Shown: positions 38,457 to 47,940, counted from the first letter of the stretch. The stretch is 64,000 bases of DNA from an uncultured Spirochaetales bacterium (GCA_964460485.1 CAYWRY010000002.1:4243-68242), one strand, 5' to 3'. Numbers and translations are program-made. Notes: generated by a model not told the origin, from the letters alone.

Positions 38457-39407
38457 TCAGAGTCGGGCGAGCAGCGCGCCGAGCGTGCGCGCGTCGCCGT
38501 TCGCGGCGAAGGCGATGCGGCCCTCGGCGTCGAGCACGTAGACGAGCGCCGGGTGCGCGAGTTGTCCCGTGTTCTCGTCGCGCTCTCGCGGCACGCGCCA
38601 GGCGTCGAGCACGGCGTTCACCTGTTCCGGCGCGCCGGACAGGACGGCGCCGTCGTCGCCGAGCCGCCAGCTCGCAGCGAGCGCGGGCAGGCGCGCGGGC
38701 GTGTCGCGCCACGGATCGAGGGTGACGACCACGAGCCGCGGCGCGCTCGCGGCGCCGCCGCGCGCGCGGGCCGCGCGCTGCGCAGCGAGCGCCTGGGAGA
38801 CGAGCGCGGGACACACGGCTTCGCAGTGCGCGAACGCGAACGTCACGAGCGCAGGGCGCCCGGCGAGCTGCGCGAGCTCGAGGCGCGCCCCGTGCTGGTC
38901 GACCAACCCGAGCGCAGGGGCGGGCCGGCCGAGGCGCGGGATCGCCGCTGCGTCGGCGAGCGCGGCGGCAGCCTCCGCGGCGACGTCCGGCGACGCGTTC
39001 GCCATCGCGAGCGTGGCGATCCGCGTGCCGCCGGCCGCCGCACCGAGCGCGACGAGCGCGGCGCACGCCGCGAGCGCCGCGCGCCCGAGGCCCGAGGCGC
39101 CGAGGCGCCGCAACCCGCTGCGCAGGCTCCGGCCGAAGGCGGCGAACAGGGCGACGCCGAGGCCGAGCGGCTCGCCGACGAGCAGCAGCCAGCCGCTCGC
39201 GCTCGGCATTCCGCTCGCGCTGGCGTTGAAGCACACCCAGCGCGCGCGAGCGAGCCACTCCGGCGGCTCGTCCGGCGCGGGCCACAGTGCGAGCGCCCAC
39301 CACGCCGCAGTCGCGAGCGCGAGCACCGCGAGTGCGAGCAGCGCCGCGCGTTCGTGCGCGGGCATGCCCGCTCGCCCCGTCACCGCGCTCGCGTTCGCCG
39401 CCGCCAT
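38457..39407 (-). CDS. SCO1/SenC-family copper chaperone fused to an N-terminal polytopic membrane domain
   Basis: The C-terminal thioredoxin-like domain has the CxxxC motif (FAHCEAVCP) and the conserved His (LAHPALVYVLD). The N-terminal ~130 aa have 3 predicted TM segments. ATG overlaps the stop of subunit I (ATGA). Confidence 0.8.
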   Translation of the reverse strand: MAAANASAVTGRAGMPAHERAALLALAVLALATAAWWALALWPAPDEPPEWLARARWVCFNASASGMPSASGWLLLVGEPLGLGVALFAAFGRSLRSGLRRLGASGLGRAALAACAALVALGAAAGGTRIATLAMANASPDVAAEAAAALADAAAIPRLGRPAPALGLVDQHGARLELAQLAGRPALVTFAFAHCEAVCPALVSQALAAQRAARARGGAASAPRLVVVTLDPWRDTPARLPALAASWRLGDDGAVLSGAPEQVNAVLDAWRVPRERDENTGQLAHPALVYVLDAEGRIAFAANGDARTLGALLARL

Positions 39408-41128
39408 CAGCCCACCTTCCACACGACGGAGAGCATCTTCCAGTTCACGAAGTAGTAGGTGACGAACGCGACCAGGAAGACGCCCACCAGCACCATCGTG
39501 CCCGGTGCGACGCCGAGCGCGTGGGGCGCGAGCGCCGCTTCGTCGCCCGCCACGAGCGCGCGCGGCGGGGAGATCAGCCCGAGCGGGAGGCCCTTCGCGG
39601 CGGCGCCACGGCCCGATTCGGCGGCGCCCAGGCGCCGGCCGAAGAACACCGACGCGACCGTCACCAGGATGTAGATCCCGCCGCCGGCGACTGCTAGCAG
39701 ACCGCCGAGCGCCATCACGCCGACCACGAGATCCACCGCCGGCGAGAACTCCACGCCGAAGGGCGCCTGGGAGAAGGTGATGTCCCAGTGCCGCCGCGGG
39801 ACGCCGAAGCTGCCCGCGAAGGTCATCGCCATCGAAAAGATCAGCATGCCGAGAGCGAACAGGTACGGCTGCACGCGCGCCAGCGGCATGAAGGCGATCT
39901 CGCGGCGAAAGATCAGCGGCACCACGTAATAAGTGATGCCCATGAATGCCATCGCCGTGCCCGAGACGACCGTCGCGTGGAAGTGGCCCGGAATGCGCAG
40001 CGTGTTGTGGGCGATGATGTTGATCTGCTCGGTGCCGAACGTGACGCCGGTGATGCCGCCGACGAAGCCAAACACCACCAGCGAGAGCACGAGCGAGCTG
40101 AAGCCGGGGTCGCCCCACGGCGCTCGCGCCAGCCAACCGAACAGTCCCTGCGTCGCGCCGCGCAGGCGCAAGCCGAGCTCGAGCCCGGCGGGCACCGTGA
40201 AGCCGTGGATCATGCTGGCGAGCACCGCCATGTACATGAAGTACGAGGTGTTCCAGACCTTCCAGGCGGGGCCGAAGCCGGGGTCGACGAGCAGGTGGTG
40301 CGCCGACGCCATCGAGATGAACAGGATGTAGAGCACGAAGGCGACGCGGCTGATCTTCTCGTTCAATACCACGCCGCCGACGGTGAGCGCGCCGAGCAGG
40401 TACCAGATCGACACCATCGCCGCGACGTTGATCTGCTGCGACGAGTGACCGAGTCCCCACCAGATCAACCGATAGAAGGACGGGTCGATCTCCAGCCAGC
40501 CCATCGACCAGAGCAGGGTCGGAACGTAGACGATCGCGCCGTGCAGCAGCGTGACGGTCGCGATGATCGCCGCGGTGAGCGCGCCGAAGGTGACGAGCGG
40601 CAGCGAGCCCTTCAAAACACCCTCGCGCTTTGCGACGGTGATCGTCGCGAAAAAGTGGCCCACCACGATCAGCGCGCCGACGGCGAACAGGATCACGCCG
40701 AGATAGAAGGGGGGCTCGGCGCGCAGCGGGACGTAGGAGGTGAAGAGCACGTCCGCCTTGCCGCTGAACATCATCCACTCGACCAGCGCGGCGCCGGCCG
40801 TCATCAGGCCGAAGGCGAGCCAGCCGAGCCGAGGCGCGGGCAGCCGCGCCGAGAGCAGCGGCGCGGCTGCGAAGTAGAGCACCGCCATCTCGAAGAACAG
40901 GATGAAGAAGATCAGCATGTTCATGCCGTGCACGGTGAGGATCCGGTAGAACCACACCGGATCGAGCAGGTGCACCGCCTGCCAGCGCGTCAGCAGCACG
41001 AGCAGCGCTGCGATGCCTCCGACGAGCAGCGCGATCGTCGCGGCGACCGCGTTGGCCTTGATCAGCGCGTCGGCGTGCGCGTCGACGAACAGGCCGGTGG
41101 AGGGGCAGGTTCGTCCCGCGGCGCTCAT
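39407..41128 (-). CDS. Heme-copper oxidoreductase subunit I, ba3 (B-family)-like but lacking the cross-link tyrosine
   Basis: Co-linear with T. thermophilus CbaA by eye: LTVHGMNMLIFF, WWGLGH, SAHHLLVDPGFGP, LRGATQGLFGWLARAPWGDP, HNTLRIPGHFHATV and GVPRRHW. GHPxVY is replaced by GHSSQQ. ATG at 41128 overlaps the subunit II stop. Confidence 0.9.
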   Translation of the reverse strand: MSAAGRTCPSTGLFVDAHADALIKANAVAATIALLVGGIAALLVLLTRWQAVHLLDPVWFYRILTVHGMNMLIFFILFFEMAVLYFAAAPLLSARLPAPRLGWLAFGLMTAGAALVEWMMFSGKADVLFTSYVPLRAEPPFYLGVILFAVGALIVVGHFFATITVAKREGVLKGSLPLVTFGALTAAIIATVTLLHGAIVYVPTLLWSMGWLEIDPSFYRLIWWGLGHSSQQINVAAMVSIWYLLGALTVGGVVLNEKISRVAFVLYILFISMASAHHLLVDPGFGPAWKVWNTSYFMYMAVLASMIHGFTVPAGLELGLRLRGATQGLFGWLARAPWGDPGFSSLVLSLVVFGFVGGITGVTFGTEQINIIAHNTLRIPGHFHATVVSGTAMAFMGITYYVVPLIFRREIAFMPLARVQPYLFALGMLIFSMAMTFAGSFGVPRRHWDITFSQAPFGVEFSPAVDLVVGVMALGGLLAVAGGGIYILVTVASVFFGRRLGAAESGRGAAAKGLPLGLISPPRALVAGDEAALAPHALGVAPGTMVLVGVFLVAFVTYYFVNWKMLSVVWKVG

Positions 41129-41715
41129 CGCTCGCCTCCTTCGCGGTCGTCGGCGTCGTCGTCCGCGCCGGCGGCCGGCAGCACGATCACCTTGCCGGTC
41201 ATCAGGTGGTGCCCGATTCCGCAGAACTCGTTGCAGATGATCGAGAACTCGCCGTGTGCGTTGGGCTTCACGCGCAGCGCGTAGTCGTACCCGGGCACGA
41301 CCTGGAAGTTCACGTTGACCGGGAAGAGGTGGAAGCCGTGGTTCACGTCGATCGAGGAGAGGTGCAGCGTGTACTCCGCCCCCTCGCGCAGCCGGAGGAT
41401 CGGCAGCCACGACCACATCGACGCCTGGAGGTAGACGTCGCTGCCCGGCGGCGGCTCGACCACCGGGAAGCCGTTCTCGTCACCCACCTGATGTGCGGCG
41501 ATGAACTCGGCGACGCGCGTCGCGTACGCGGCGGCCGTCACGCGATGGCGGATGCCCGACGGGTTCTGTCCGCCGCGCAGGTGCCAGAGCGGCATCATCG
41601 CGAACAGCACGAGACACCACGCGAAGGCGATCGCGACCCACACCTTCTCGCTGCCGTGGACCGGCTTCCACCAGATCCGTTCCGGCGCTTCGATTCCCGA
41701 GTGGTACACGCGCAC
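41125..41715 (-). CDS. Heme-copper oxidoreductase subunit II with a complete CuA site
   Basis: One TM segment plus a cupredoxin domain. CuA ligands are present in SIDVNHGFH and CNEFCGIGHHLM (C-x3-C-x3-H-x2-M). It aligns to ba3 CbaB. Confidence 0.9.
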   Translation of the reverse strand: MRVYHSGIEAPERIWWKPVHGSEKVWVAIAFAWCLVLFAMMPLWHLRGGQNPSGIRHRVTAAAYATRVAEFIAAHQVGDENGFPVVEPPPGSDVYLQASMWSWLPILRLREGAEYTLHLSSIDVNHGFHLFPVNVNFQVVPGYDYALRVKPNAHGEFSIICNEFCGIGHHLMTGKVIVLPAAGADDDADDREGGER

Positions 41716-41724
41716 TCCTCCGAG

Positions 41725-41889
41725 TCAGGGCAGCGGCGCGTCGCCCAGCGACGCGAGCTCGAGCAGCCCCCAGCCCGTGTAGAAGACGAACATCACGACC
41801 AGGCAGGCGGCGAGGAGCAGGAACGGCCGATCGAAGAGCCGCTGGCCGAGCGGCACCTCGTCGCCTGCGCGCTGCGGGGATTCCGTCAT
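41725..41889 (-). CDS. Small single-TM peptide, possible subunit IIa analogue
   Basis: 54-aa ORF at the 3' end of shadow ORF 41725..43587. AGGAGG lies 4-9 nt upstream of the ATG. One TM segment (FLLLAACLVVMFVFYTGWGLL). It lies 9 nt upstream of subunit II. Confidence 0.55.
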   Translation of the reverse strand: MTESPQRAGDEVPLGQRLFDRPFLLLAACLVVMFVFYTGWGLLELASLGDAPLP

Positions 41890-42027
41890 GTGAGCCTCCT
41901 TCGCGCCCGGCCCCGGACGCCGCACACACTGCTGCGGTGCAAGCGGTGCGCCGATCTCGACAGGGAACGGCGCCTGCAAAGACGGAGGCGGCCGAGCGCC
42001 CTCGTTGCCCGCCAACTGCGAGACTTC

Positions 42028-43731
42028 ATGACGGAAAGCCGAGATCGAACGGCGCCGAGCGGCGGCGCGCGCGAGCCGCTCGAGAAGGGCGGCGGGCGCG
42101 GGCCTGCGCCAAGCGGCCCCAGCGTGGTGCGTCTCGCCTCGTCCGATTCGTCGACGGCCGCGCGCCTTCCGGGGCTTCGCGCAGCGGCGCTGAAGCCGCT
42201 CGCCGCGGCGGACGCGGCCCTCACACGCCTGCTCGGCTGGGAGGCGAACCCGCTCCACCAGACGGGCGCCGTCGCCGCCCTCGCGTTCCTGGTCATGCTC
42301 GCGAGCGGCCTCTACCTGCTGCTGCTCTACCGGGTCGGCGCGCCGTACGAGTCCATGCAGGCGATCCAGGCACAGGCGCTCGCGGGCCGCTGGCTGCGCG
42401 CACTGCATCGCTACGCCGCCGACGCCGCGGTGATCGCGGTGGCGCTGCACGTCTTCCGGATGTGGGCGCAGGGACGGAGCTGGGGCCCGCGCTCGCTCGC
42501 TTGGCTCTCGGGCCTCGTGCTCGCGGGACTGCTCTTCCTGAGCGGCTGGACCGGCTACGTGATGGTGTGGGACGAGCACGCGCTGGTGCTCGCGCGCGAG
42601 GGCGCACGGCTGCTCGACGCGCTGCCCTTCTTCGCCGAGCCGCTCGCGCGCACCTTCTCGGGCGAGCGCGCGATGCCGAGCGCCTTCTTCTTCTTGAACC
42701 TGTTCGCGCACGTCGCGGTGCCCGTCGGCATGGCGGCGCTCCTGCTCGTGCACGTCGCGCGCATCGCGCGCCCGCAGCTCCTGCCGCCGTGCAAGCTCGC
42801 GCTCGGCTTCATGCTCGCGCTCGCCGCGCTCTCGGTGGTGCTGCCGGCGCCGCTGCCGCCGCGTGCCGATCCGCTCGCGCTGCCGCGCGAAGTGCCGCTC
42901 GACCTCTTCTACGCGTTCTGGCTCCCGGTCACGCGGGCGCTCCCGCCGATCGGCGCCTGGGGCGTGCTCGTCGCGCTCACGCTGGCGGCCGCGAGCGCGC
43001 CGTGGTGGACGCGGCCGCGGCGCGCCGCGCGTGCGGCGCCTTCCACCGTCGACCCCGAGCTGTGCACGGGCTGCGAGCAGTGCTCGCTGGACTGCCCCTT
43101 CGACGCGATCGCGATGGTGACGCGCGCCGCTCCGCGAGACGCCGCGGCCGCCGGCCGCTCGGAGCGGCACGCCCTGGTGAACGCCGAGCGCTGCGTCTCG
43201 TGCGGAGTGTGCGCGGGCTCTTGTGCGCCGATGGCGATCGGGCCGCCCGGGCGCGCGGGGCGCGACCAGCTCGCGGCGGCCCGCGCGTTCGTCGCGAAGG
43301 CGGAGCTCGCTCACCCCGACGTGGTCGTGATCGCCTGCCGGAACGGCGGCGGCGCGAGGGAAGCCGCCGGGGCGCAGCAGTTCGCCGTCGACTGCGCCGG
43401 CGCGCTGCACAGCTCGGTGGTCGAGCTGTTCCTGCGCAGCGGCGCCGGCGGCGTGCTGGTGGCCGCCTGCTCGCCGCGCGACTGCCGCGCGCGCGAAGGG
43501 CCCAAATGGCTCGGCGAGCGGCTCTTCCAGGAGCGCGAGGCGGAGCTGCACGCGCGCGTCGATCGCACGCGCGTGCGCGTCGTCCACGCGGGCGCGGGTG
43601 AGCGCGCTGCCTTCGCCGCCGCGCTCGCCGACTTCCGCCGCGAGATCGCGGTGCGCGGGCGCAGCGAGGTGGAGCCGCCGGCGCCGCTCGAGCCGGAGTG
43701 CGCCGCGAGCGCGCAGGGAGCCCAGCGATGA
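42028..43731 (+). CDS. Fusion protein: di-heme cytochrome b (N-terminal type) + 2x[4Fe-4S] ferredoxin + MvhD/FlpD-like Fe-S domain
   Basis: Two H-x13-H pairs (LHRYAADAAVIAVALH; AHVAVPVGMAALLLVH) lie in TM helices. CTGCEQCSLDCP and CVSCGVCAGSCAP are cluster motifs. The C-terminal four-Cys pattern (IAC...VDCAG...GVLVAACSPRDC) resembles the hydrogenase delta subunit. The start is uncertain, because ATG 42028 has no clear RBS. Confidence 0.8.
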   Translation: MTESRDRTAPSGGAREPLEKGGGRGPAPSGPSVVRLASSDSSTAARLPGLRAAALKPLAAADAALTRLLGWEANPLHQTGAVAALAFLVMLASGLYLLLLYRVGAPYESMQAIQAQALAGRWLRALHRYAADAAVIAVALHVFRMWAQGRSWGPRSLAWLSGLVLAGLLFLSGWTGYVMVWDEHALVLAREGARLLDALPFFAEPLARTFSGERAMPSAFFFLNLFAHVAVPVGMAALLLVHVARIARPQLLPPCKLALGFMLALAALSVVLPAPLPPRADPLALPREVPLDLFYAFWLPVTRALPPIGAWGVLVALTLAAASAPWWTRPRRAARAAPSTVDPELCTGCEQCSLDCPFDAIAMVTRAAPRDAAAAGRSERHALVNAERCVSCGVCAGSCAPMAIGPPGRAGRDQLAAARAFVAKAELAHPDVVVIACRNGGGAREAAGAQQFAVDCAGALHSSVVELFLRSGAGGVLVAACSPRDCRAREGPKWLGERLFQEREAELHARVDRTRVRVVHAGAGERAAFAAALADFRREIAVRGRSEVEPPAPLEPECAASAQGAQR

Positions 43732-44225
43732 CGCGCCTCGCCGGGGTCGCCCTCGCGCTCGCGCTGCTGGGCGCGCTCGCCTGGGGCACGCGCGCGCCGT
43801 TGCCGGCGAGCGCAGAGGACGCTGCCATCCGTCTCGCGTGGCGCGCGCTGGGGGAGGCCGCGCTGCACTGTCGAACGCCGAGTGCCGAGGAGCTGGCGCG
43901 CTTGCCTGCGCACATGCGCCGCAAGGAGATCTGCGAACGCCGCCTTCCGACCTTCCGCCTCGAGGTGGACGTGGACGGCGTGCGGGTCGTCGAGGATCGC
44001 GTCGAGCCGGCGGGAGCGGCGGGCGACCGCCCGGCCGTGGTGCTCCGGGAGCTCGCCGTCGCGCCCGGGGATCATCGCCTGCGCGTCTCGTTCCGCGCGG
44101 AACGCGAGGGCGCAGCGCCGCCGAAGCTGCTGGATCGGCGCTTCGCGCTGGCGGCCGGCGAGGTGGCCCTCGTGATGGAGGACCCGGCCAGCCGCGAGCT
44201 CGTGCTGCGCACCCGCGGCCGCTGA
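43728..44225 (+). CDS. Hypothetical exported protein coupled to the cytochrome b fusion gene
   Basis: ATG overlaps the upstream stop (ATGA). Signal peptide-like N-terminus (LAGVALALALLGALAWG). No family recognised. Confidence 0.55.
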   Translation: MTRLAGVALALALLGALAWGTRAPLPASAEDAAIRLAWRALGEAALHCRTPSAEELARLPAHMRRKEICERRLPTFRLEVDVDGVRVVEDRVEPAGAAGDRPAVVLRELAVAPGDHRLRVSFRAEREGAAPPKLLDRRFALAAGEVALVMEDPASRELVLRTRGR

Positions 44226-44274: not shown

Positions 44275-44397
44275 GCTCCCGTCTTCGGCGCGGCCTGCAA
44301 GATCTCCGCGCCCCGTTCGTATGGACCCGGCGTGGACGCGATCTCGCTCATTGCCGCGCCCGGGTTCGGGCCGTTCGGGTTAGGGTGGCGCCATTTC

Positions 44398-45021
44398 ATG
44401 GCGTCTCGGGAACCTGGGGAGGCGGCGGTGCGACCGGGCTCGGCGACCGCGCGCGCAGTCGCCGCGACCGGACCCTCGTCGCCGCTGGACCACGAGGGGC
44501 TCGCCGCCCACTACGCCGCGGACGTGCTGCGCCTGTGCCGCCGCATGCTCGGCCACGCCCACGACGCCGAGGAGGCGCGCAGCGAGACCTTCCTGCGCGC
44601 CCAGCAAGCCGCAGCGAGCTGGGACGGCCGGCCGCTGCGCGCCTGGTTGCTGAGCATCGCCGCCCATCACTGCGTGGATCGCCTGCGGCGCCGCGCGCTG
44701 GAGGGGCGGCTCTTCGAGGCGAGGGACCTCGACGCCGGGGATCTTCCGGCCGGCGCGCCGAATCCGCTCACGCTGCTGCTCGCCCGCGAGCGCAGCGTCC
44801 AGCTCGAGGCCGCGCTCGAGGCGCTGCCCGACAAGTACCGCGCGCCGCTCGTGCTGCGCTTCCTCGCGGACCAGAGCTACGGCGAGATCTCCGCTGCGCT
44901 CGGCGTGACGGAGGCGCAGGTCGCGGTGCTCGTGTTCCGCGCGAAGGCGAAGCTGCGCGAGGCGCTCGCGGAGGCGCCGCGCGCGCGCGGCCCCGCTGCG
45001 CAGCGGAGGGCGCAGTCGTGA
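44398..45021 (+). CDS. ECF-type RNA polymerase sigma factor
   Basis: Region 2 (ARSETFLRAQ, LRAWLLSIAAHHCVDRLRRR) and region 4 (QSYGEISAALGVTEAQVAVLVFRAKAKL). ATG at 44398 within ORF 44332..45021. Confidence 0.85.
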   Translation: MASREPGEAAVRPGSATARAVAATGPSSPLDHEGLAAHYAADVLRLCRRMLGHAHDAEEARSETFLRAQQAAASWDGRPLRAWLLSIAAHHCVDRLRRRALEGRLFEARDLDAGDLPAGAPNPLTLLLARERSVQLEAALEALPDKYRAPLVLRFLADQSYGEISAALGVTEAQVAVLVFRAKAKLREALAEAPRARGPAAQRRAQS

Positions 45022-46667
45022 GCTGCCCGCACGAATGGCAGCTCTCCGCGTACGCGGACGCCGGCCTCGACGCGGCGACGGTACGCGCGCTCGAGACGCA
45101 CCTCGTCGGCTGCGCGCGCTGCCGCCGGCGCGTGATCGCGCTGCGCGACGAGGCGCGCGTGCTGCGCCACCTCGCGCACGAGCGTTTGACCGCGCCCGCC
45201 GCGCCCGCGCCCGCGGGCCGCGGCATCGCCCTCGGCCTACCGACTTCCGTCGCCGCGCTCGCCCTCGCTTCCTTCGCGGCGAGCGCGCTGCAGGGGAGCC
45301 TGCCGCGCCCGGTCCGCTGGCTCGCGCCTTCCGAACGCCTGGGAGTGACCTCCATGTTCTTCGACTTGCTGTTCGCCGTCCGGGAAAGCTTCTCGGCGTG
45401 GTTCGACTTTGCGTTCGCGCTGGCTGCGCTCGGCGTGGCCGCCGGCGTGGCCTATCTCGCGGCCGATCTGCTCGTGCGCCGCTCGCGAGGCGGGGCGCGC
45501 ACCGCGGCGCTGCTGCTCGCGCTGGCCGGCGCCGCCGCGCTCGCTCCGGACGCGGCGCAGGCGAAGATCGAGGTGCGGGAGCAGGACGAGGTGACGGTTG
45601 GCGCCGACGAGACCGTCGAGGGCTCGCTGGTCGCGCTCGGCGACGACGTGACGATCGAGGGGACGGTGCGCGGCGATCTGCTCGCGTTCGGCGACAGGTT
45701 GCGCCTCCGCGGCACGGTCGAGGGCAACGTGTTCTGCGCGGGCGAGAACGTAGAGATCGCCGCGAAGGTGAGCGGCAGCGTGCACTGCGCGGGCTACGAC
45801 CTGGCCGCGGCGCCCGTCGTGAGCGGCAACCTCTACGCGGCGGGGCGCGACCTGTCGGTCGAGGCCGCCGCGCGCGTCGGCGGCGACCTCGCCGTGGGCT
45901 GCAACGAGTGTCTCGTGCAGGGCGAGTCCGCCCGCGACCTGCTCGTCGCCGGCGACGAGGTCGTGCTCGAGGGCCGCGCCGCCCGCGACGTCACGATCCA
46001 CGCGGGCGACGTCAGCTTCGGAGCGGGCGCCAGCTATCCCGGCGCGATCTCCCTCCACATGCCGCAAGGCAAGGAGCCCGAGGTCGCGAGCGGCGCCGCG
46101 CTCGGCCCGATCACGCGCGAGCAGTTGGACGGCGACGGCACCCCGACGCCGATCCGCCGCATCAGCCAGGCCGAGCGCATCCGCGGCCGGCTCGTGCTGA
46201 TCGCGAGCGCCTTCGTGGTGGGCCTCGTGCTCTTCGCGCTCGCGCCGGGGATGTTCGCAGTGCGCGTGGAGTCCACCGGCCGCTTCTTCGGGGCGGTGGG
46301 CATGGGCTTCGCGGTGCTGGTCGTCGTGCCCGTCGCGCTGGTCCTGCTCGCGATCACGGTGCTCGGCATTCCGGCCGCGCTGTTCGGCGCGCTCGTGCTG
46401 GTGTCGCTCGTGTTCGTGGGGCCCGTGGTGGTGGCCGCCGTCGTCGGGCGCGCGGTGATGCGTTCTGGCGGCGAGAGCTTCCGCGACTTCGCGGTCGCGC
46501 TGGGCGTGGGCCTCTTGCTGTTCGGCGTGCTGGCGAGCCTGCCCGCGGTCGGCGGCCTCGCGACGTTCGTGCTCGTCCTCGAGGGCGTCGGGCTGCTCAC
46601 CCTCGCCGCCCACGAGTGGTGGGCCGAGCGCCGCGCGGCGCGGCAGGCGGCGGCCGTACCGCTGTAA
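45018..46667 (+). CDS. Zinc-type anti-sigma factor with a bactofilin-like beta-helical repeat domain and a polytopic C-terminal membrane domain
   Basis: GTG overlaps the sigma stop (GTGA). ZAS motif H-x3-C-x2-C (THLVGCARC). A TM segment is followed by repeated G-x-V/L-x-G units (VEGSLVALGDDVTIEGTVRGDLLAFGDRLRLRGTVEGNVF...), then about 4-5 TM helices. Confidence 0.75.
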   Translation: MSCPHEWQLSAYADAGLDAATVRALETHLVGCARCRRRVIALRDEARVLRHLAHERLTAPAAPAPAGRGIALGLPTSVAALALASFAASALQGSLPRPVRWLAPSERLGVTSMFFDLLFAVRESFSAWFDFAFALAALGVAAGVAYLAADLLVRRSRGGARTAALLLALAGAAALAPDAAQAKIEVREQDEVTVGADETVEGSLVALGDDVTIEGTVRGDLLAFGDRLRLRGTVEGNVFCAGENVEIAAKVSGSVHCAGYDLAAAPVVSGNLYAAGRDLSVEAAARVGGDLAVGCNECLVQGESARDLLVAGDEVVLEGRAARDVTIHAGDVSFGAGASYPGAISLHMPQGKEPEVASGAALGPITREQLDGDGTPTPIRRISQAERIRGRLVLIASAFVVGLVLFALAPGMFAVRVESTGRFFGAVGMGFAVLVVVPVALVLLAITVLGIPAALFGALVLVSLVFVGPVVVAAVVGRAVMRSGGESFRDFAVALGVGLLLFGVLASLPAVGGLATFVLVLEGVGLLTLAAHEWWAERRAARQAAAVPL

Positions 46668-46705
46668 CCGCCGCAGACATCCGTTCGTAGAGGGCGGCGA
46701 GCGGC

Positions 46706-47269
46706 GTGAAGGACGCGAGCGAGCGTGGGGCGCGTTGGCGCGAGTGGATGGCGTCGGCCCAGCGGGGCGACGCGATCGCGTACGAGCGGCTGCTCGAGGA
46801 CCTGCTGCCGTTCGTGCGCGTCCTCGTGCGCGCGCGCATCGGTGAGGATCCGAACGCGGAGGACGTCGTGCAGGAGGTGCTGCTCTCGATCCACACCGCG
46901 CGCCACACCTTTCAGGCCGGGCGCGAGCTCGAGCCCTGGGTGCGCACGATCGCGCGCAACGCGGTGATCGACGCCGTGCGGCGCCGCAGCCGCCAGCGCG
47001 CCCGCGACGCGGGCGTCGACGCGGAGGCGCTGCCCGACGACGCGCGCGAGCGCGCCAGCGCCGAAGCCGCGCCGCTCCCCCGCTCGCTGGCGCGCGCGCT
47101 GGAGCAGCTCCCGGCGGTGCAGCGCGAGGCCGTGCTGCTGCTCAAGGTCGAGGGTCTCTCGGTCGCGGAGGCGGCCGGCCGCGCGCGCACCACGCCTGGC
47201 GCGTTGAAGCTGCGCGCTCACCGCGGCTACAAGCTGCTGCGCGACTTGTTGGGACGGGAACCGGCGTGA
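46706..47269 (+). CDS. ECF-type RNA polymerase sigma factor (SigF-like, paired with NrsF-type regulator)
   Basis: Region 2 (DVVQEVLLSIH, LEPWVRTIARNAVIDAVRRR) and region 4 (LSVAEAAGRARTTPGALKLRAHRG). Start is GTG 46706 or ATG 46748. Confidence 0.85.
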   Translation: MKDASERGARWREWMASAQRGDAIAYERLLEDLLPFVRVLVRARIGEDPNAEDVVQEVLLSIHTARHTFQAGRELEPWVRTIARNAVIDAVRRRSRQRARDAGVDAEALPDDARERASAEAAPLPRSLARALEQLPAVQREAVLLLKVEGLSVAEAAGRARTTPGALKLRAHRGYKLLRDLLGREPA

Positions 47270-47940
47270 CGGGCGATCCCACGCGCGAGCTGATCCGCGA
47301 GCTGGCGAGCGATCTCGCGCCGGTGAGGCCGCTGCCGCGCCTGCGCTTCCTGGCCGCTGTGGTGCTGTGGTCGTGGCTCGCGATCGGTGCCGCGGGCGTC
47401 GCGCTCCAGGGACTCGCGCCGACGTTCTGGCGCTCGCTGGCCGCTCCGCTGAGCAGCGGCGGAATCTTCGCCGGGCTGCTCGGCGCGGGGCTCGGCGGCG
47501 CGCTCGCCGCCCTCGCGCTCGCGATCCCGGGCCGCGAGCGAGTCGCGCGCGTGGGTCTCGCGCTGGGCGGTGGGGGCGCGGCGCTCGCGGCGGGCATCGC
47601 CTGCGCGCTGCTCGCGCGAAGCTCCCTCGCCGCATGGCGCGCGCCGGCCGCCGGCGACTTGCCGTGCCTCGCAACCGCGCTCGCCATCGGCCTCGTTCCC
47701 GCGCTCGCGCTCGGCTGGCTCGCCGGCCGCGCCGCGCCGCATCGCCCGCTCACGATCGCGCTCGCCGCCGCCGCGGGCGCCGCCGCGCTCGGCGGCAGCG
47801 TCGCCCAGGCGACCTGCGCTTGGGGCGAGGCGATGCATCTGCTGCTCGGCCACGCGCTCGTGCCCGCGGTGGGCGCGCTCGCGCTCACCCTGCCGCTGCT
47901 GGTCGCGATTCGGAGGAGCGAGCGAGAGCACGCGCGCTGA
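47266..47940 (+). CDS. NrsF/DUF1109-like six-TM negative regulator of the adjacent sigma factor
   Basis: GTG overlaps the sigma stop (GTGA). The N-terminus LIRELASDLAPVRPL followed by six TM helices is typical of the NrsF family. Conserved Cys residues are present. Confidence 0.7.
   Translation: MTGDPTRELIRELASDLAPVRPLPRLRFLAAVVLWSWLAIGAAGVALQGLAPTFWRSLAAPLSSGGIFAGLLGAGLGGALAALALAIPGRERVARVGLALGGGGAALAAGIACALLARSSLAAWRAPAAGDLPCLATALAIGLVPALALGWLAGRAAPHRPLTIALAAAAGAAALGGSVAQATCAWGEAMHLLLGHALVPAVGALALTLPLLVAIRRSEREHAR

Follow-up and report, generated by a model that had tools for sequence, protein, structure and literature searches.

The gene studied here stands divergent from an operon for an atypical haem-copper oxidase in DNA of an uncultured Spirochaetales bacterium (GCA_964460485.1 CAYWRY010000002.1:4243-68242). 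It encodes a cytochrome b to which a ferredoxin and an MvhD/FlpD-like domain are joined. The locus raises the question of what such a protein does beside a haem-copper enzyme: whether it feeds that enzyme with electrons, helps to build it, or merely lies next to it. We analysed the whole stretch of 64,000 nucleotides, here denoted the window.

Three redox domains in one chain and a periplasmic partner

The fusion gene, its domains and the gene that follows it are located as follows:

42028..43731, plus strand: fusion gene, 567 aa, bc-type di-haem cytochrome b with 2x[4Fe-4S] ferredoxin and MvhD/FlpD domains
42169..43011, plus strand: cytochrome b domain, about aa 48-328, an amphipathic N-terminal helix and then TM helices A-F
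43042..43239, plus strand: 2x[4Fe-4S] ferredoxin domain, about aa 339-404, motifs CTGCEQCSLDCP and CVSCGVCAGSCAP
43315..43662, plus strand: MvhD/FlpD-type domain, about aa 430-545, with C437, C456, C481 and C486
43728..44225, plus strand: 165-aa partner (denoted orf165), an N-terminal TM anchor (aa 2-21) and a periplasmic 10-strand beta-sandwich

Translation of 42028-43731 (+) is free of stops over 567 aa. The first ~45 aa are weakly conserved and modelled with low pLDDT, so the true start may lie further downstream. Profile searches with Cytochrome_B, Fer4 and FlpD placed PF00033 and PF02662 above cutoff and matched the Fer4 family, bearing out all three domain calls of the initial annotation. 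Two homologue searches with the fusion returned 1951 and 4426 database proteins at E<1e-5, and the three-domain architecture was common to all matches listed (120 per search). Full-length homologues were found in Myxococcota, Gemmatimonadota and Alphaproteobacteria. The protein occurs in identical copy on five independent contigs, and AlphaFold2 modelled it as a single chain (pLDDT 85.6, pTM 0.84). Nothing favoured a frameshift or mis-assembly joining separate cytochrome b and ferredoxin/MvhD genes, and the five contigs, the common architecture of the listed homologues and the confident single-chain model rule it out. The fusion is a real, widespread membrane redox protein, hitherto uncharacterised.

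The membrane domain matches Cytochrome_B PF00033 over aa 77-246 (Pfam, E 6e-16, 59.3 bits versus a cutoff of 27.2). Among PDB chains, the fusion matched cytochrome b6 by sequence with E 1.7e-19, and cytochrome b chains were also matched. Foldseek aligned 276-316 columns with full-length bc1 cytochrome b (prob 1.0, TM normalised to the target about 0.45-0.57), against only ~174 columns with b6. The AlphaFold2 model agrees with bc1 helices A-F, extending beyond the four-helix b6 core. Of the six TM helices claimed earlier, simple hydropathy showed five clear segments, and the six-helix A-F core stands on AlphaFold and Foldseek. The two H-x13-H pairs reported earlier, H127/H141 and H228/H242 in helices B and D, are present and invariant in 106 homologues reaching down to 33% identity. 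By analogy with bc1 topology, H127 and H228 would ligate the p-side haem and H141 and H242 the n-side haem; the Arg residues beside the His ligands are conserved.

The loops on the p-side were compared in the same 106 homologues. W181, D182, A189, D197, F202 and F210 of the cd-loop are invariant, as are D292 and P300 alone in the ef loop (VPLDLFYAFWLP), and the Qo-site PEWY motif sought in the ef loop of the fusion is absent. No gene for a Rieske protein or c-type cytochrome was found in the window's cluster or in the Gemmatimonadota, Myxococcota and Alphaproteobacteria loci examined. A cytochrome c gene was seen in locus L092 only. The fusion thus shares with bc1/b6f cytochrome b the fold of helices A-F, the four His in helices B and D and the Arg beside the ligands. 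It differs in lacking helices G-H, PEWY and a cluster-encoded Rieske or cytochrome c1/f partner, and in carrying a cytoplasmic Fe-S arm after helix F and a periplasmic beta-sandwich partner.

Fer4 family matches cover aa 340-400 (Pfam), and all eight ferredoxin Cys (C346/349/352/356 and C389/392/395/399) are invariant in the 106 homologues. Both clusters described earlier as CxxCxxCxxxCP motifs are present, the second ending in C-A-P and not in C-P. The FlpD PF02662 match spans aa 453-541 (Pfam, E 1.5e-10, 41.6 bits versus a cutoff of 22.3). C437, C456 and C481 are invariant, and C486 is at least 90% conserved. C456, C481 and C486 align to Cys of the solved MvhD chains 7bkb_F and 5odc_D, with VDCAG opposite VMCSG and AACSPRDC opposite GGCHLGDC; C437 lies upstream of the aligned stretch. 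The tandem of Fer4 and MvhD also resembles the C-terminal part of HdrA2, residues 568-770 (NCBIfam, E 1e-16, below cutoff). Placement of the Fe-S part on the cytoplasmic side, as first proposed, was judged correct. The FlpD match above threshold and the same Cys pattern liken the arm to MvhD and to the Fer4+MvhD module of HdrA2/QmoB, whereas here the module hangs on a membrane cytochrome b instead of a hydrogenase or flavoprotein, and no Hdr, Mvh or Qmo genes lie near the fusion. Genes for Mvh hydrogenase or HdrA/QmoB-type flavoproteins were absent from every neighbourhood examined, and the cluster encodes no cytoplasmic redox partner for the MvhD end.

The fusion stop TGA (43729-43731) overlaps the orf165 ATG (43728), so that the ATGA coupling noted earlier is confirmed by the coordinates. 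A homologue of orf165 lies directly downstream of the fusion in all loci that reach that far. Among long-form representatives, 85 of the 89 carry the orf165 domain as an in-frame C-terminal extension of the cytochrome b protein; this joined form, with a seventh TM helix leading to the periplasmic beta-sandwich, predominates among distant relatives. The two ORFs (567 aa and 165 aa) are thus physically linked as one machine by natural fusions, and orf165, first described as an exported protein of unknown function, is instead its membrane-anchored periplasmic domain. The orf165 model (AlphaFold2, pLDDT 94.3) yielded no PDB fold match at E<1e-3, and orf165 has no Pfam match. C48, E55, P60, H62, M63, R64, C69, G96, D100 and G114 are conserved, placing a conserved Cys/His-Met/Cys patch in the periplasmic beta-sandwich.

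Variants consisting of cytochrome b and the periplasmic domain, with no Fe-S part, occur in the same operons. Two of them (P0399 and P0460) are complete proteins devoid of the cytoplasmic Fe-S domain in the same operon context. Long-form and Fe-S-less variants alike are placed after SCO in one operon type, in which subunit I reads GHSSQQINV. The in-frame joining of the orf165 domain and the Fe-S-less variants in the same operons are new here. Side observations include one representative (P0501) that is a SCO1 / cytochrome b / Fer4 fusion, and one locus (L091) with an additional DUF420-SCO1-PCuAC fusion.

An eNOR-type enzyme in constant company

The region upstream of the fusion contains the following features:

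41890..42027, no strand: divergent intergenic region, 138 bp, with conserved blocks TGCAAGCG and GGAACGGCGCnTGCA
41725..41889, minus strand: 54-aa single-TM protein, possible small subunit, first gene of the divergent operon
41125..41715, minus strand: haem-copper subunit II, one TM helix and a cupredoxin domain, CuA motif CNEFCGIGHHLM
39407..41128, minus strand: haem-copper subunit I, eNOR-type, 573 aa, PF00115 (E 1e-60)
38457..39407, minus strand: SCO1/SenC copper chaperone, 316 aa, with a long hydrophobic N-terminal extension

The divergent arrangement with a 138-bp gap, as first described, holds with the 54-aa ORF starting at 41889. Public gene callers start this ORF at 41979, giving 84 aa and a 48-bp gap; its homologues are 51-60 aa long. 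The 54-aa protein has one TM segment by hydropathy, no Pfam match, and a homologue in every locus reaching that far. Aligning the intergenic region with its counterparts in L004 and L005 showed conservation of TGCAAGCG and GGAACGGCGCnTGCA among the closest relatives, and a generic sigma54-like pattern showed no enrichment within the window. Subunit II matches CoxB (NCBIfam, E 1.9e-13) and, weakly, COX2 (Pfam); its translation contains the CuA motif CNEFCGIGHHLM with an upstream His, and its homologues, found in all loci, are 61-87% identical. SCO1/SenC matches PF02630 over aa 168-297 (E 3.7e-23), with conserved synteny.

Subunit I reads GHSSQQ where the T. thermophilus ba3 enzyme has GHPIVY, Tyr237 aligning to Gln, and this motif is near-invariant in 122 subunit I homologues and in all variant contexts. 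GH, HH and GHFH are retained, i.e. three active-site His and two haem-ligand His. The nearest solved relatives are B-family/ba3 oxidases. Replacement of the helix VI cross-link Tyr by Gln is the published marker of eNOR (PMC8756737 Table A4), and the atypical oxidase is therefore, by its sequence, an eNOR-type enzyme and a predicted NO reductase. The sNOR/bNOR cluster (norSY-senC-orf1) is similar in having an extra membrane protein gene after senC and a CuA-type NOR (PMC3475470, PMC4940428). Its orf1/cbaD product, however, is a six-TM protein of about 190 aa for which no cofactor domains are described, compared with the 567 aa of the fusion, and sNOR/bNOR has Asn at the Tyr position where subunit I here has Gln. 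On these differences in size, cofactor content and residue, identity with the orf1/cbaD family was rejected.

Across 83 loci, the fusion and orf165 adjoin the genes for the small TM protein, subunit II, subunit I and SenC wherever the contig reaches, so that the Tyr-less oxidase/SenC cluster accompanies the fusion in every locus with enough sequence. The alphaproteobacterial loci form a single operon in the order small protein, II, I, haem O synthase, SCO, fusion, orf167 and hemerythrin, the last gene encoding a bacteriohemerythrin. A regulator of the Rrf2 family is found in 54 of 80 loci; Rrf2 and hemerythrin neighbours fit a theme of NO and Fe-S, and the window contains no other denitrification genes. 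Cultured carriers include Defluviimonas, Pararhizobium sp. IMCC3301, Marivita sp. S2033 and Limibaculum. This strict company with an eNOR-type enzyme indicates that the fusion is probably its dedicated electron-supply or maturation module.

A likely counterpart has been reported from Ferrigenium straubiae, in whose eNOR operon 'Cytbc1CCC-like protein 2' (IMG gene 2878407323; cytochrome b + [Fe-S]) accompanies eNOR II, eNOR I, haem O synthase and Sco1; its protein was detected during Fe(II) oxidation under denitrifying conditions (bioRxiv 10.64898/2026.01.22.701106). We liken this gene to the fusion by the same IMG annotation and operon context, not by sequence. The pairing of this architecture with a CuA oxidoreductase, which the initial annotation could not map to a characterised system, can thus be mapped through the Tyr to Gln signature of eNOR and the Ferrigenium operon gene. 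The Ferrigenium authors called the protein a 'rather unusual' peculiarity and focused on a paralogue with cytochrome b, Fe-S, FAD and NADH domains (bioRxiv 10.64898/2026.01.22.701106); family-wide synteny, the fused periplasmic domain and the Fe-S-less variants are not part of that preprint. In its supplements the homologue stands at about 47-130 TPM with a protein signal of 23.9, near Sco1, compared with thousands of TPM and a protein signal of 31.6 for eNOR I/II (bioRxiv 10.64898/2026.01.22.701106). Levels far below eNOR I/II and near Sco1 look more like those of an accessory factor than of a stoichiometric donor.

Electron supply or maturation as probable roles

The reading we prefer, tentatively and with a probability of roughly 0.4, is that the fusion and orf165 constitute a dedicated accessory redox module of eNOR, which oxidises quinol and bears a cytoplasmic Fe-S arm. 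The machine would consist of a six-helix bc-type cytochrome b with two b haems spanning the membrane, an n-side arm with two [4Fe-4S] clusters and an MvhD-type cluster, and a seventh TM helix leading to the periplasmic beta-sandwich. Membrane quinol would be oxidised by the cytochrome b at a Qo-like p-side pocket formed by the highly conserved cd and ef loops, the docking place of the Rieske head in bc1. Electrons would then be passed periplasmically to the tethered CuA domain of subunit II, with the beta-sandwich as a docking or relay element between cytochrome b and CuA. From the same quinol pocket a low-potential path may run over haem bL, haem bH, the 2x[4Fe-4S] clusters and the MvhD cluster, in that order, to a redox partner in the cytoplasm whose gene lies outside the cluster; this path would replace or supplement a Qi site. 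Cofactor loading, quinol reactivity, electron direction, CuA contact and NO reductase activity are what we infer here. The Fe-S-less P0399 and P0460 leave the membrane pool as the sole obvious donor for the conserved core. Several observations weigh against a quinol-fed module: the window's cluster encodes no obvious high-potential acceptor, be it Rieske, cytochrome c1 or another, and no cytoplasmic partner for the MvhD end; PEWY is missing; the periplasmic domain has no recognisable redox-cofactor fold; and collinear operons group the fusion with assembly genes (haem O synthase, SCO), not with structural genes. We know of no characterised Rieske-less bc-type Qo site.

The position among assembly genes suits the main rival, which we consider somewhat unlikely, namely that the fusion is a maturation factor, a CcoG/Fre-like transmembrane metal reductase or related assembly helper. 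Electrons from cytoplasmic Fe-S or from quinol would pass via the b haems to a periplasmic Cys/His/Met site, where Cu destined for CuA, or Fe destined for the non-haem site, would be reduced or handed over. Alternatively, the module would support haem modification in this particular haem-copper family. In collinear operons the fusion directly follows haem O synthase and SCO, much as ccoGHIS follow ccoNOQP. CcoG (FixG), a cupric reductase that helps to assemble cbb3 oxidase, is encoded just past haem-copper structural genes, is membrane-bound with two cytoplasmic [4Fe-4S] clusters and a C-terminal periplasmic Ig-like domain, and has an unknown physiological donor (PMC7558416). Eukaryotic cupric/ferric reductases are likewise di-haem b transmembrane proteins fed from the cytosol (PMC7558416). 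Cys48, His62, Met63 and Cys69 of orf165 are typical soft-metal ligands, the Ferrigenium homologue is expressed at the level of Sco1, its FAD/NAD(P)H paralogue has a Fre/NOX-like layout, and the SCO1-containing fusions of P0501 and L091 point the same way. The likeness to CcoG is, however, architectural, with no detectable sequence homology: CcoG has neither b haems nor an MvhD domain, and no FixG_C, Fer4_5 or Fer4_18 Pfam match was found in the fusion or orf165 at E<=0.1. The fold search with orf165 gave no support either, and its two Cys may simply form a periplasmic disulfide. Moreover, aa3 and ba3, other CuA enzymes, do without such a factor, and to reduce metal ions with a complete bc-type cytochrome b, strongly conserved in its p-side loops, would be elaborate.

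A third possibility, clearly less probable, is an inside-out electron wire for NO detoxification, in which a cytoplasmic reductant (ferredoxin or a flavoprotein; for the FAD/NAD-fused paralogue, NAD(P)H) would feed CuA by way of MvhD/Fe-S, haem bH and haem bL, freeing the NO reductase from quinol and cytochrome c as in NOX/Fre or MsrQ. Strict conservation of the Fe-S/MvhD arm, seen both in the window's clade and in the alphaproteobacterial one, speaks for such a wire, as does the part of MvhD domains as electron connectors in Mvh-Hdr complexes. The Ferrigenium paralogue, with its cytochrome b, Fe-S, FAD and NADH domains, is laid out as NAD(P)H-driven transmembrane reductases are. Detoxification would also suit the Rrf2 and hemerythrin neighbours, and a window that contains no further denitrification genes. 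The Fe-S-less variants share the operon context, however, so a cytoplasmic donor is not the universal source, and no donor is encoded in the cluster. Electrons flowing outward would undo the charge separation that the conserved eNOR proton channel proposed in the literature leads one to expect, and the wire gives no reason why helices E-F and the conserved p-side loops are retained.

The preferred quinol-fed module also admits a bolder form, which we regard as a long shot: the eNOR complex may be a quinol-based electron-bifurcating machine making a strong reductant. One quinol electron would fall via CuA to the very oxidising NO/N2O couple, and the low-potential semiquinone electron that results would be driven through the haems b, both [4Fe-4S] clusters and the MvhD cluster onto a low-potential carrier in the cytoplasm. 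This carrier would be ferredoxin or, for the FAD/NAD-fused paralogues, NAD(P)+. If true, NO respiration would yield strong reductant with no need for reverse electron transport.

The initial annotation had proposed a one-polypeptide Qmo/Hdr-like module, and the fusion may link the quinone pool to a low-potential cytoplasmic carrier. A stand-alone module equilibrating the two and merely co-located with the oxidase is, however, very improbable. QmoC, HdrDE and DsrMK have NarI/HdrE-type cytochromes b and CCG or HdrC-type domains. The fusion recalls their logic in wiring a di-haem membrane anchor to cytoplasmic Fe-S/MvhD clusters, and its C-terminal half resembles the HdrA2 C-terminus. Yet its Pfam content comprises PF00033/PF13631, Fer4 and FlpD only, with no CCG (HdrD/HdrB) and no NarI-type match, and no Hdr, Qmo, Apr, Dsr or hydrogenase genes occur in any neighbourhood examined. 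With the cytochrome b of bc1/b6f type and neither a CCG domain nor a hydrogenase or Hdr partner, the Qmo/Hdr likeness is at best an analogy. The partners of those systems are sulfur or heterodisulfide enzymes, unlike the haem-copper enzyme of the fusion, and the haem-copper synteny across phyla and four architectures, together with the fused periplasmic domain, points to a role bound up with this enzyme.

Meaning for the eNOR family

eNOR is reported to be among the most widespread families of NO-reducing, N2O-producing enzymes, and a recent estuarine survey ranked it first among the nor types in both abundance and transcription (PMC11214002; PMC13592168). Its activity has been measured with artificial donors only, and the literature examined does not identify a physiological electron donor. 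The fusion bears on the question of how this abundant N2O-producing family is fed or built. A cofactor-rich protein that keeps company with eNOR in at least three phyla, whether split, fused or Fe-S-less, is the evident missing piece, either as electron-input subunit or as assembly factor. As a bc-type cytochrome b that functions with no Rieske protein and with an Fe-S/MvhD arm in the cytoplasm, it would be the first known. Either role would alter models of N2O production with respect to energy yield, dependence on quinol versus cytoplasmic reductant, and the choice of marker genes.

The fusion protein and its family

Translation of the window, whose G+C content is ~73%, gives a stop-free ORF of 567 amino acids (the fusion) and, behind it, an ORF of 165 amino acids (orf165). 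The Pfam matches in the fusion all lie above the curated thresholds:

42028-43731, forward strand: fusion ORF, 567 aa
fusion residues 77-246: Cytochrome_B (PF00033), E 6e-16
fusion residues 340-400: Fer4-type dicluster matches
fusion residues 453-541: FlpD/MvhD (PF02662), E 1.5e-10
43728-44225, forward strand: orf165, 165 aa, its ATG overlapping the fusion stop codon (ATGA)

The initial annotation had described a cytochrome b joined to a ferredoxin and an MvhD/FlpD-like domain, and Pfam and translation agree with it save in small details. Both of the cluster motifs it called canonical are present, the second ending in C-A-P instead of CP. Against NCBIfam the fusion showed only sub-threshold likeness, to the b6-like ExtP cytochrome b, to cytochrome b6 and to the last 200 residues of HdrA2, a stretch that in HdrA2 too consists of ferredoxin plus MvhD.

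Identical copies of the fusion, annotated as "ferredoxin", were found on five metagenome contigs, and a word-seeded search with the fusion returned 1951 proteins at E<1e-5. The 120 matches listed all carry the same three Pfam domains (53-77% identity, 500-585 aa); they come from Myxococcota and Gemmatimonadota MAGs and are named by NCBI "hydrogenase iron-sulfur subunit" or "cytochrome b N-terminal domain-containing protein". In a pattern scan covering one genome for each GTDB species, 355 relatives were confirmed. The single match in plasmid and phage collections was a 33%-identical homologue on a Defluviimonas plasmid, through which a second clade of 4426 alphaproteobacterial proteins was reached, with the isolates Defluviimonas salinarum, Limibaculum sp. 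FT325, Pararhizobium sp. IMCC3301, Marivita sp. S2033 and Tabrizicola. We looked for the sequencing frameshift that the annotation had considered and found none: the identical contig copies, together with homologues of the same architecture in both clades, rule out a fusion artefact.

An alignment of 106 sequences from both clades demonstrated that the haem ligands H127, H141, H228 and H242, all eight ferredoxin cysteines and the MvhD cysteines C437, C456 and C481 are invariant, with C486 conserved in at least 90%; the cysteines of solved MvhD subunits match those of the fusion. The p-side loops are among the most conserved parts of the protein (W181, D182, A189, D197, F202, F210, D292 and P300 are invariant in the 106 sequences), and the PEWY motif is absent from the fusion cytochrome b. 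A fifth cysteine near the C-terminus, C558 (ECxxx, window ~43699-43701), is invariant in a 20-sequence Gemmatimonadota/Myxococcota alignment and loses its conservation once the alphaproteobacterial clade is added.

The AlphaFold2 model built from the 106-sequence alignment (pLDDT 85.6, pTM 0.84) was compared using Foldseek, which aligned 276-316 columns with full-length bc1 cytochrome b and ~174 with cytochrome b6. These column counts indicate that the membrane part comprises helices A-F with the cd and ef loops, extending beyond the four-helix N-terminal domain. Since helix F would end on the n-side under cytochrome b topology, the Fe-S and MvhD domains are predicted to be cytoplasmic, as had been proposed.

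Natural joining of orf165 to the fusion

The ATGA coupling noted earlier is evident in the translation, with orf165 starting at 43728. A single hydrophobic segment stands at the N-terminus of orf165, and neither Pfam nor NCBIfam returned a family match for it. An exhaustive phmmer search with the cytochrome b part only (fusion residues 50-335) gave 224 cluster representatives at E<1e-30. Among the best 150 of these, 89 are long relatives of 620-760 aa, in which the same three domains are followed by 150-200 additional residues. In 85 of the 89 these residues are an orf165 homologue joined in frame, indicating that orf165, which the initial annotation took for a separate exported protein, is the detached C-terminus of the fusion. 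Its hydrophobic N-terminus is a seventh transmembrane helix that brings the chain back to the periplasm.

Modeled with the natural long-form fusions as alignment, orf165 folds with a pLDDT of 94.3 into a transmembrane helix (residues 2-21) followed by a ten-strand beta-sandwich. Foldseek found no PDB match at E<1e-3, only generic beta-sandwich matches (E>2e-3, TM<=0.41), and kinship with cupredoxin, Rieske, PCuAC or FixG_C domains was not demonstrable against PDB or Pfam. Conserved residues are C48, E55, P60, H62, M63, R64, C69, G96, D100 and G114, of which the Cys...His-Met...Cys patch could bind a metal or simply form a loop closed by a disulfide.

The divergent eNOR-type operon and its conservation

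Upstream of the fusion lies a divergent operon, the last three genes of which overlap by 1 or 4 nt:

41889-41725, reverse strand: 54-aa single-TM ORF, first gene
reverse strand: subunit II-like protein with a complete CuA motif, CNEFCGIGHHLM
reverse strand: haem-copper subunit I, 573 aa (PF00115, E 1e-60)
38457-39407, reverse strand: SCO1/SenC, 316 aa, Sco domain at residues 168-297

Public gene calls give the small ORF as 84 aa, starting at 41979 (window 41725-41979, reverse strand). The 54-aa form is more likely, because homologues are 51-60 aa long and resemble it only from the ATG at 41889 onward. The first ~150 residues of SCO1/SenC are hydrophobic, with several apparent TM helices, which is unusual among Sco proteins; these normally have one anchor.

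The best solved relatives of subunit I are B-family ba3 oxidases. GHPIVY of the Thermus ba3 enzyme aligns with GHSSQQ of subunit I, so that the cross-linked Tyr237 is replaced by Gln, while the HH and GHFH ligand motifs are retained. The motif WWGLGHSSQQINV is near-invariant in 122 subunit I homologues and in every variant context examined. The residue at the Tyr position is Gln in eNOR, Asn in sNOR and bNOR, Asp in gNOR, and Glu in cNOR and qNOR (PMC8756737, table adapted from Hemp and Gennis). We therefore file the enzyme, on its active-site signature and the similarity of its operon, as eNOR-type; the eNOR of Rhodothermus marinus is a demonstrated NO reductase in a TMPD/ascorbate assay (PMC11214002). 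An sNOR identity was ruled out by the Gln in place of Asn. The orf1/cbaD product of the sNOR and bNOR clusters, known from nitrifiers and Bacillus and of ~190 aa with six TM helices (PMC3475470, PMC4940428), was likewise rejected as a match and is a different protein from the fusion.

A perfect 10-nt inverted repeat, TTCCGTCATG / CATGACGGAA, at 41881-41890 and 42027-42036 covers both divergent start codons, and both proteins therefore begin M-T-E-S (MTESPQ..., MTESRD...). Two intergenic blocks, TGCAAGCG and GGAACGGCGCnTGCA (41942-41978), are kept in the two closest relatives (loci L004 and L005). A possible reading is a back-to-back pair of sigma54-like -24/-12 elements, one on each strand; this is only a lead, because the generic GG-N10-TGCA pattern shows no enrichment across the window (29 observed, 26.7 expected).

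To follow the neighbourhood, six window proteins were compared by tblastn with 83 loci, a sample weighted to close relatives, and six more distant loci were added. In every one of the 83 loci reaching far enough, an orf165 homologue lies directly 3' of the fusion, and the small TM protein, subunit II, subunit I and SenC lie divergently upstream, subunit I being the best-conserved member (67-91% identity). The association of the fusion with the haem-copper/SenC set, suggested from the window, thus holds across genomes. Four alphaproteobacterial genomes or plasmids have these genes in a single collinear operon: small protein, subunit II, subunit I, haem O synthase, SCO, fusion, orf167 (the orf165 counterpart) and, at the end, a bacteriohemerythrin (L087:10882-11286, L088:11106-11513, L089:11127-11531, L090:11071-11478). 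Among 80 Gemmatimonadota/Myxococcota loci, no hemerythrin was found and haem O synthase occurs in two only.

An Rrf2-family regulator, generically IscR/NsrR-like and below equivalog cutoffs, occurs in 54 of 80 GTDB loci (L004-L083), mostly between the small TM gene and the fusion (further examples are L001:7511-7927 and L003:5195-5635). Neither the window nor its closest Myxococcota relatives have it. Directly 3' of orf165 (44332-47940) the window contains:

44332-45021: ECF sigma factor
45018-46667: zf-HC2/DUF8173 membrane protein, 549 aa, putative anti-sigma factor
46706-47269: ECF sigma factor
47266-47940: hydrophobic membrane protein, 224 aa

These sigma factor/membrane protein pairs may substitute for the missing Rrf2 regulator. 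The ten largest other ORFs of the window held no nir or nos genes; their Pfam assignments were housekeeping, unrelated or without match.

Architectural variants and possible roles

Mid-length cluster representatives (440-500 aa) appear to be mostly truncated copies of the three-domain architecture. Only two, P0399 and P0460, look complete without the Fe-S and MvhD domains, retaining cytochrome b, the seventh helix and the beta-sandwich. P0399 (locus L091) follows subunit II, subunit I (GHSSQQINV) and SCO1; upstream of subunit II, L091 also encodes a 426-aa DUF420-SCO1-PCuAC (LpqE-like) fusion. Representative P0501 is a SCO1/cytochrome b/Fer4 fusion, and P0393, a long form, follows subunit I and SCO. 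Behind P0393 lie genes for a protein of 472 aa with weak likeness to COX1 and for a cytochrome c of 108 aa (L092:5166-6876), neither of which is in the window. The invariant core is thus cytochrome b plus the periplasmic domain, always with the eNOR-type haem-copper subfamily in the contexts examined, and the cytoplasmic Fe-S/MvhD arm is often added to it but can be dispensed with or exchanged.

A related operon is described in Ferrigenium straubiae (bioRxiv 10.64898/2026.01.22.701106): eNOR II, eNOR I, haem O synthase and Sco1, then "Cytbc1CCC-like protein 1" (cytochrome b, Fe-S, FAD and NADH domains), a hypothetical protein, an "eNOR scaffold protein", which the 472-aa protein of L092 probably is, PerM, and "Cytbc1CCC-like protein 2" (cytochrome b and Fe-S), which by description resembles the fusion. 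Its authors call the genes "rather unusual" and speculate on a supercomplex and a quinol:NAD+ oxidoreductase. Expression data on this family come from this one preprint on another organism, where the fusion homologue is expressed at about the level of Sco1, far below eNOR I/II.

Our literature search found no identified physiological electron donor of eNOR. We tentatively favour, at a probability of about 0.4, the reading that the fusion and orf165 form a dedicated quinol-oxidising input module sending electrons towards the tethered CuA domain, with the arm leading to a cytoplasmic partner. The Fe-S-less variants argue for it, since the quinone pool is the one obvious source from which their core could draw electrons.

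The strongest rival, a role in maturation of the enzyme, is possible and somewhat less probable. It would fit the grouping with haem O synthase and SCO in collinear operons, the Sco1-like expression in Ferrigenium, and a layout that echoes di-haem transmembrane metal reductases and also CcoG, the cupric reductase of cbb3 oxidase, which has two [4Fe-4S] clusters and a periplasmic Ig-like C-terminal domain and whose donor is not known (PMC7558416). That the protein carries electrons outward from a cytoplasmic reductant to the enzyme for NO detoxification is unlikely; such a path would suit the paralogue fused to FAD/NADH domains and the neighbouring Rrf2 and hemerythrin genes, but not the Fe-S-less variants. 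Quinol-based electron bifurcation driven by NO reduction, the boldest reading, is more doubtful still. The stand-alone Qmo/Hdr-like module of the initial annotation is disfavoured, as its type of cytochrome b is not the one present here, no CCG domains and, in the neighbourhoods examined, no Hdr/Qmo partners were found, and synteny points to another role.

The mechanism is constrained because the protein contains a genuine cytochrome b of the bc type whose p-side loops are conserved, is physically linked with a periplasmic domain and is genetically inseparable from a CuA-bearing eNOR-type enzyme. If the fusion and orf165 are the quinol-oxidising input module, quinol would be oxidised by a cytochrome b module dedicated to the eNOR-type enzyme, electrons would pass from it towards the tethered CuA domain, and a haem b/Fe-S/MvhD path would link the module to a cytoplasmic partner.
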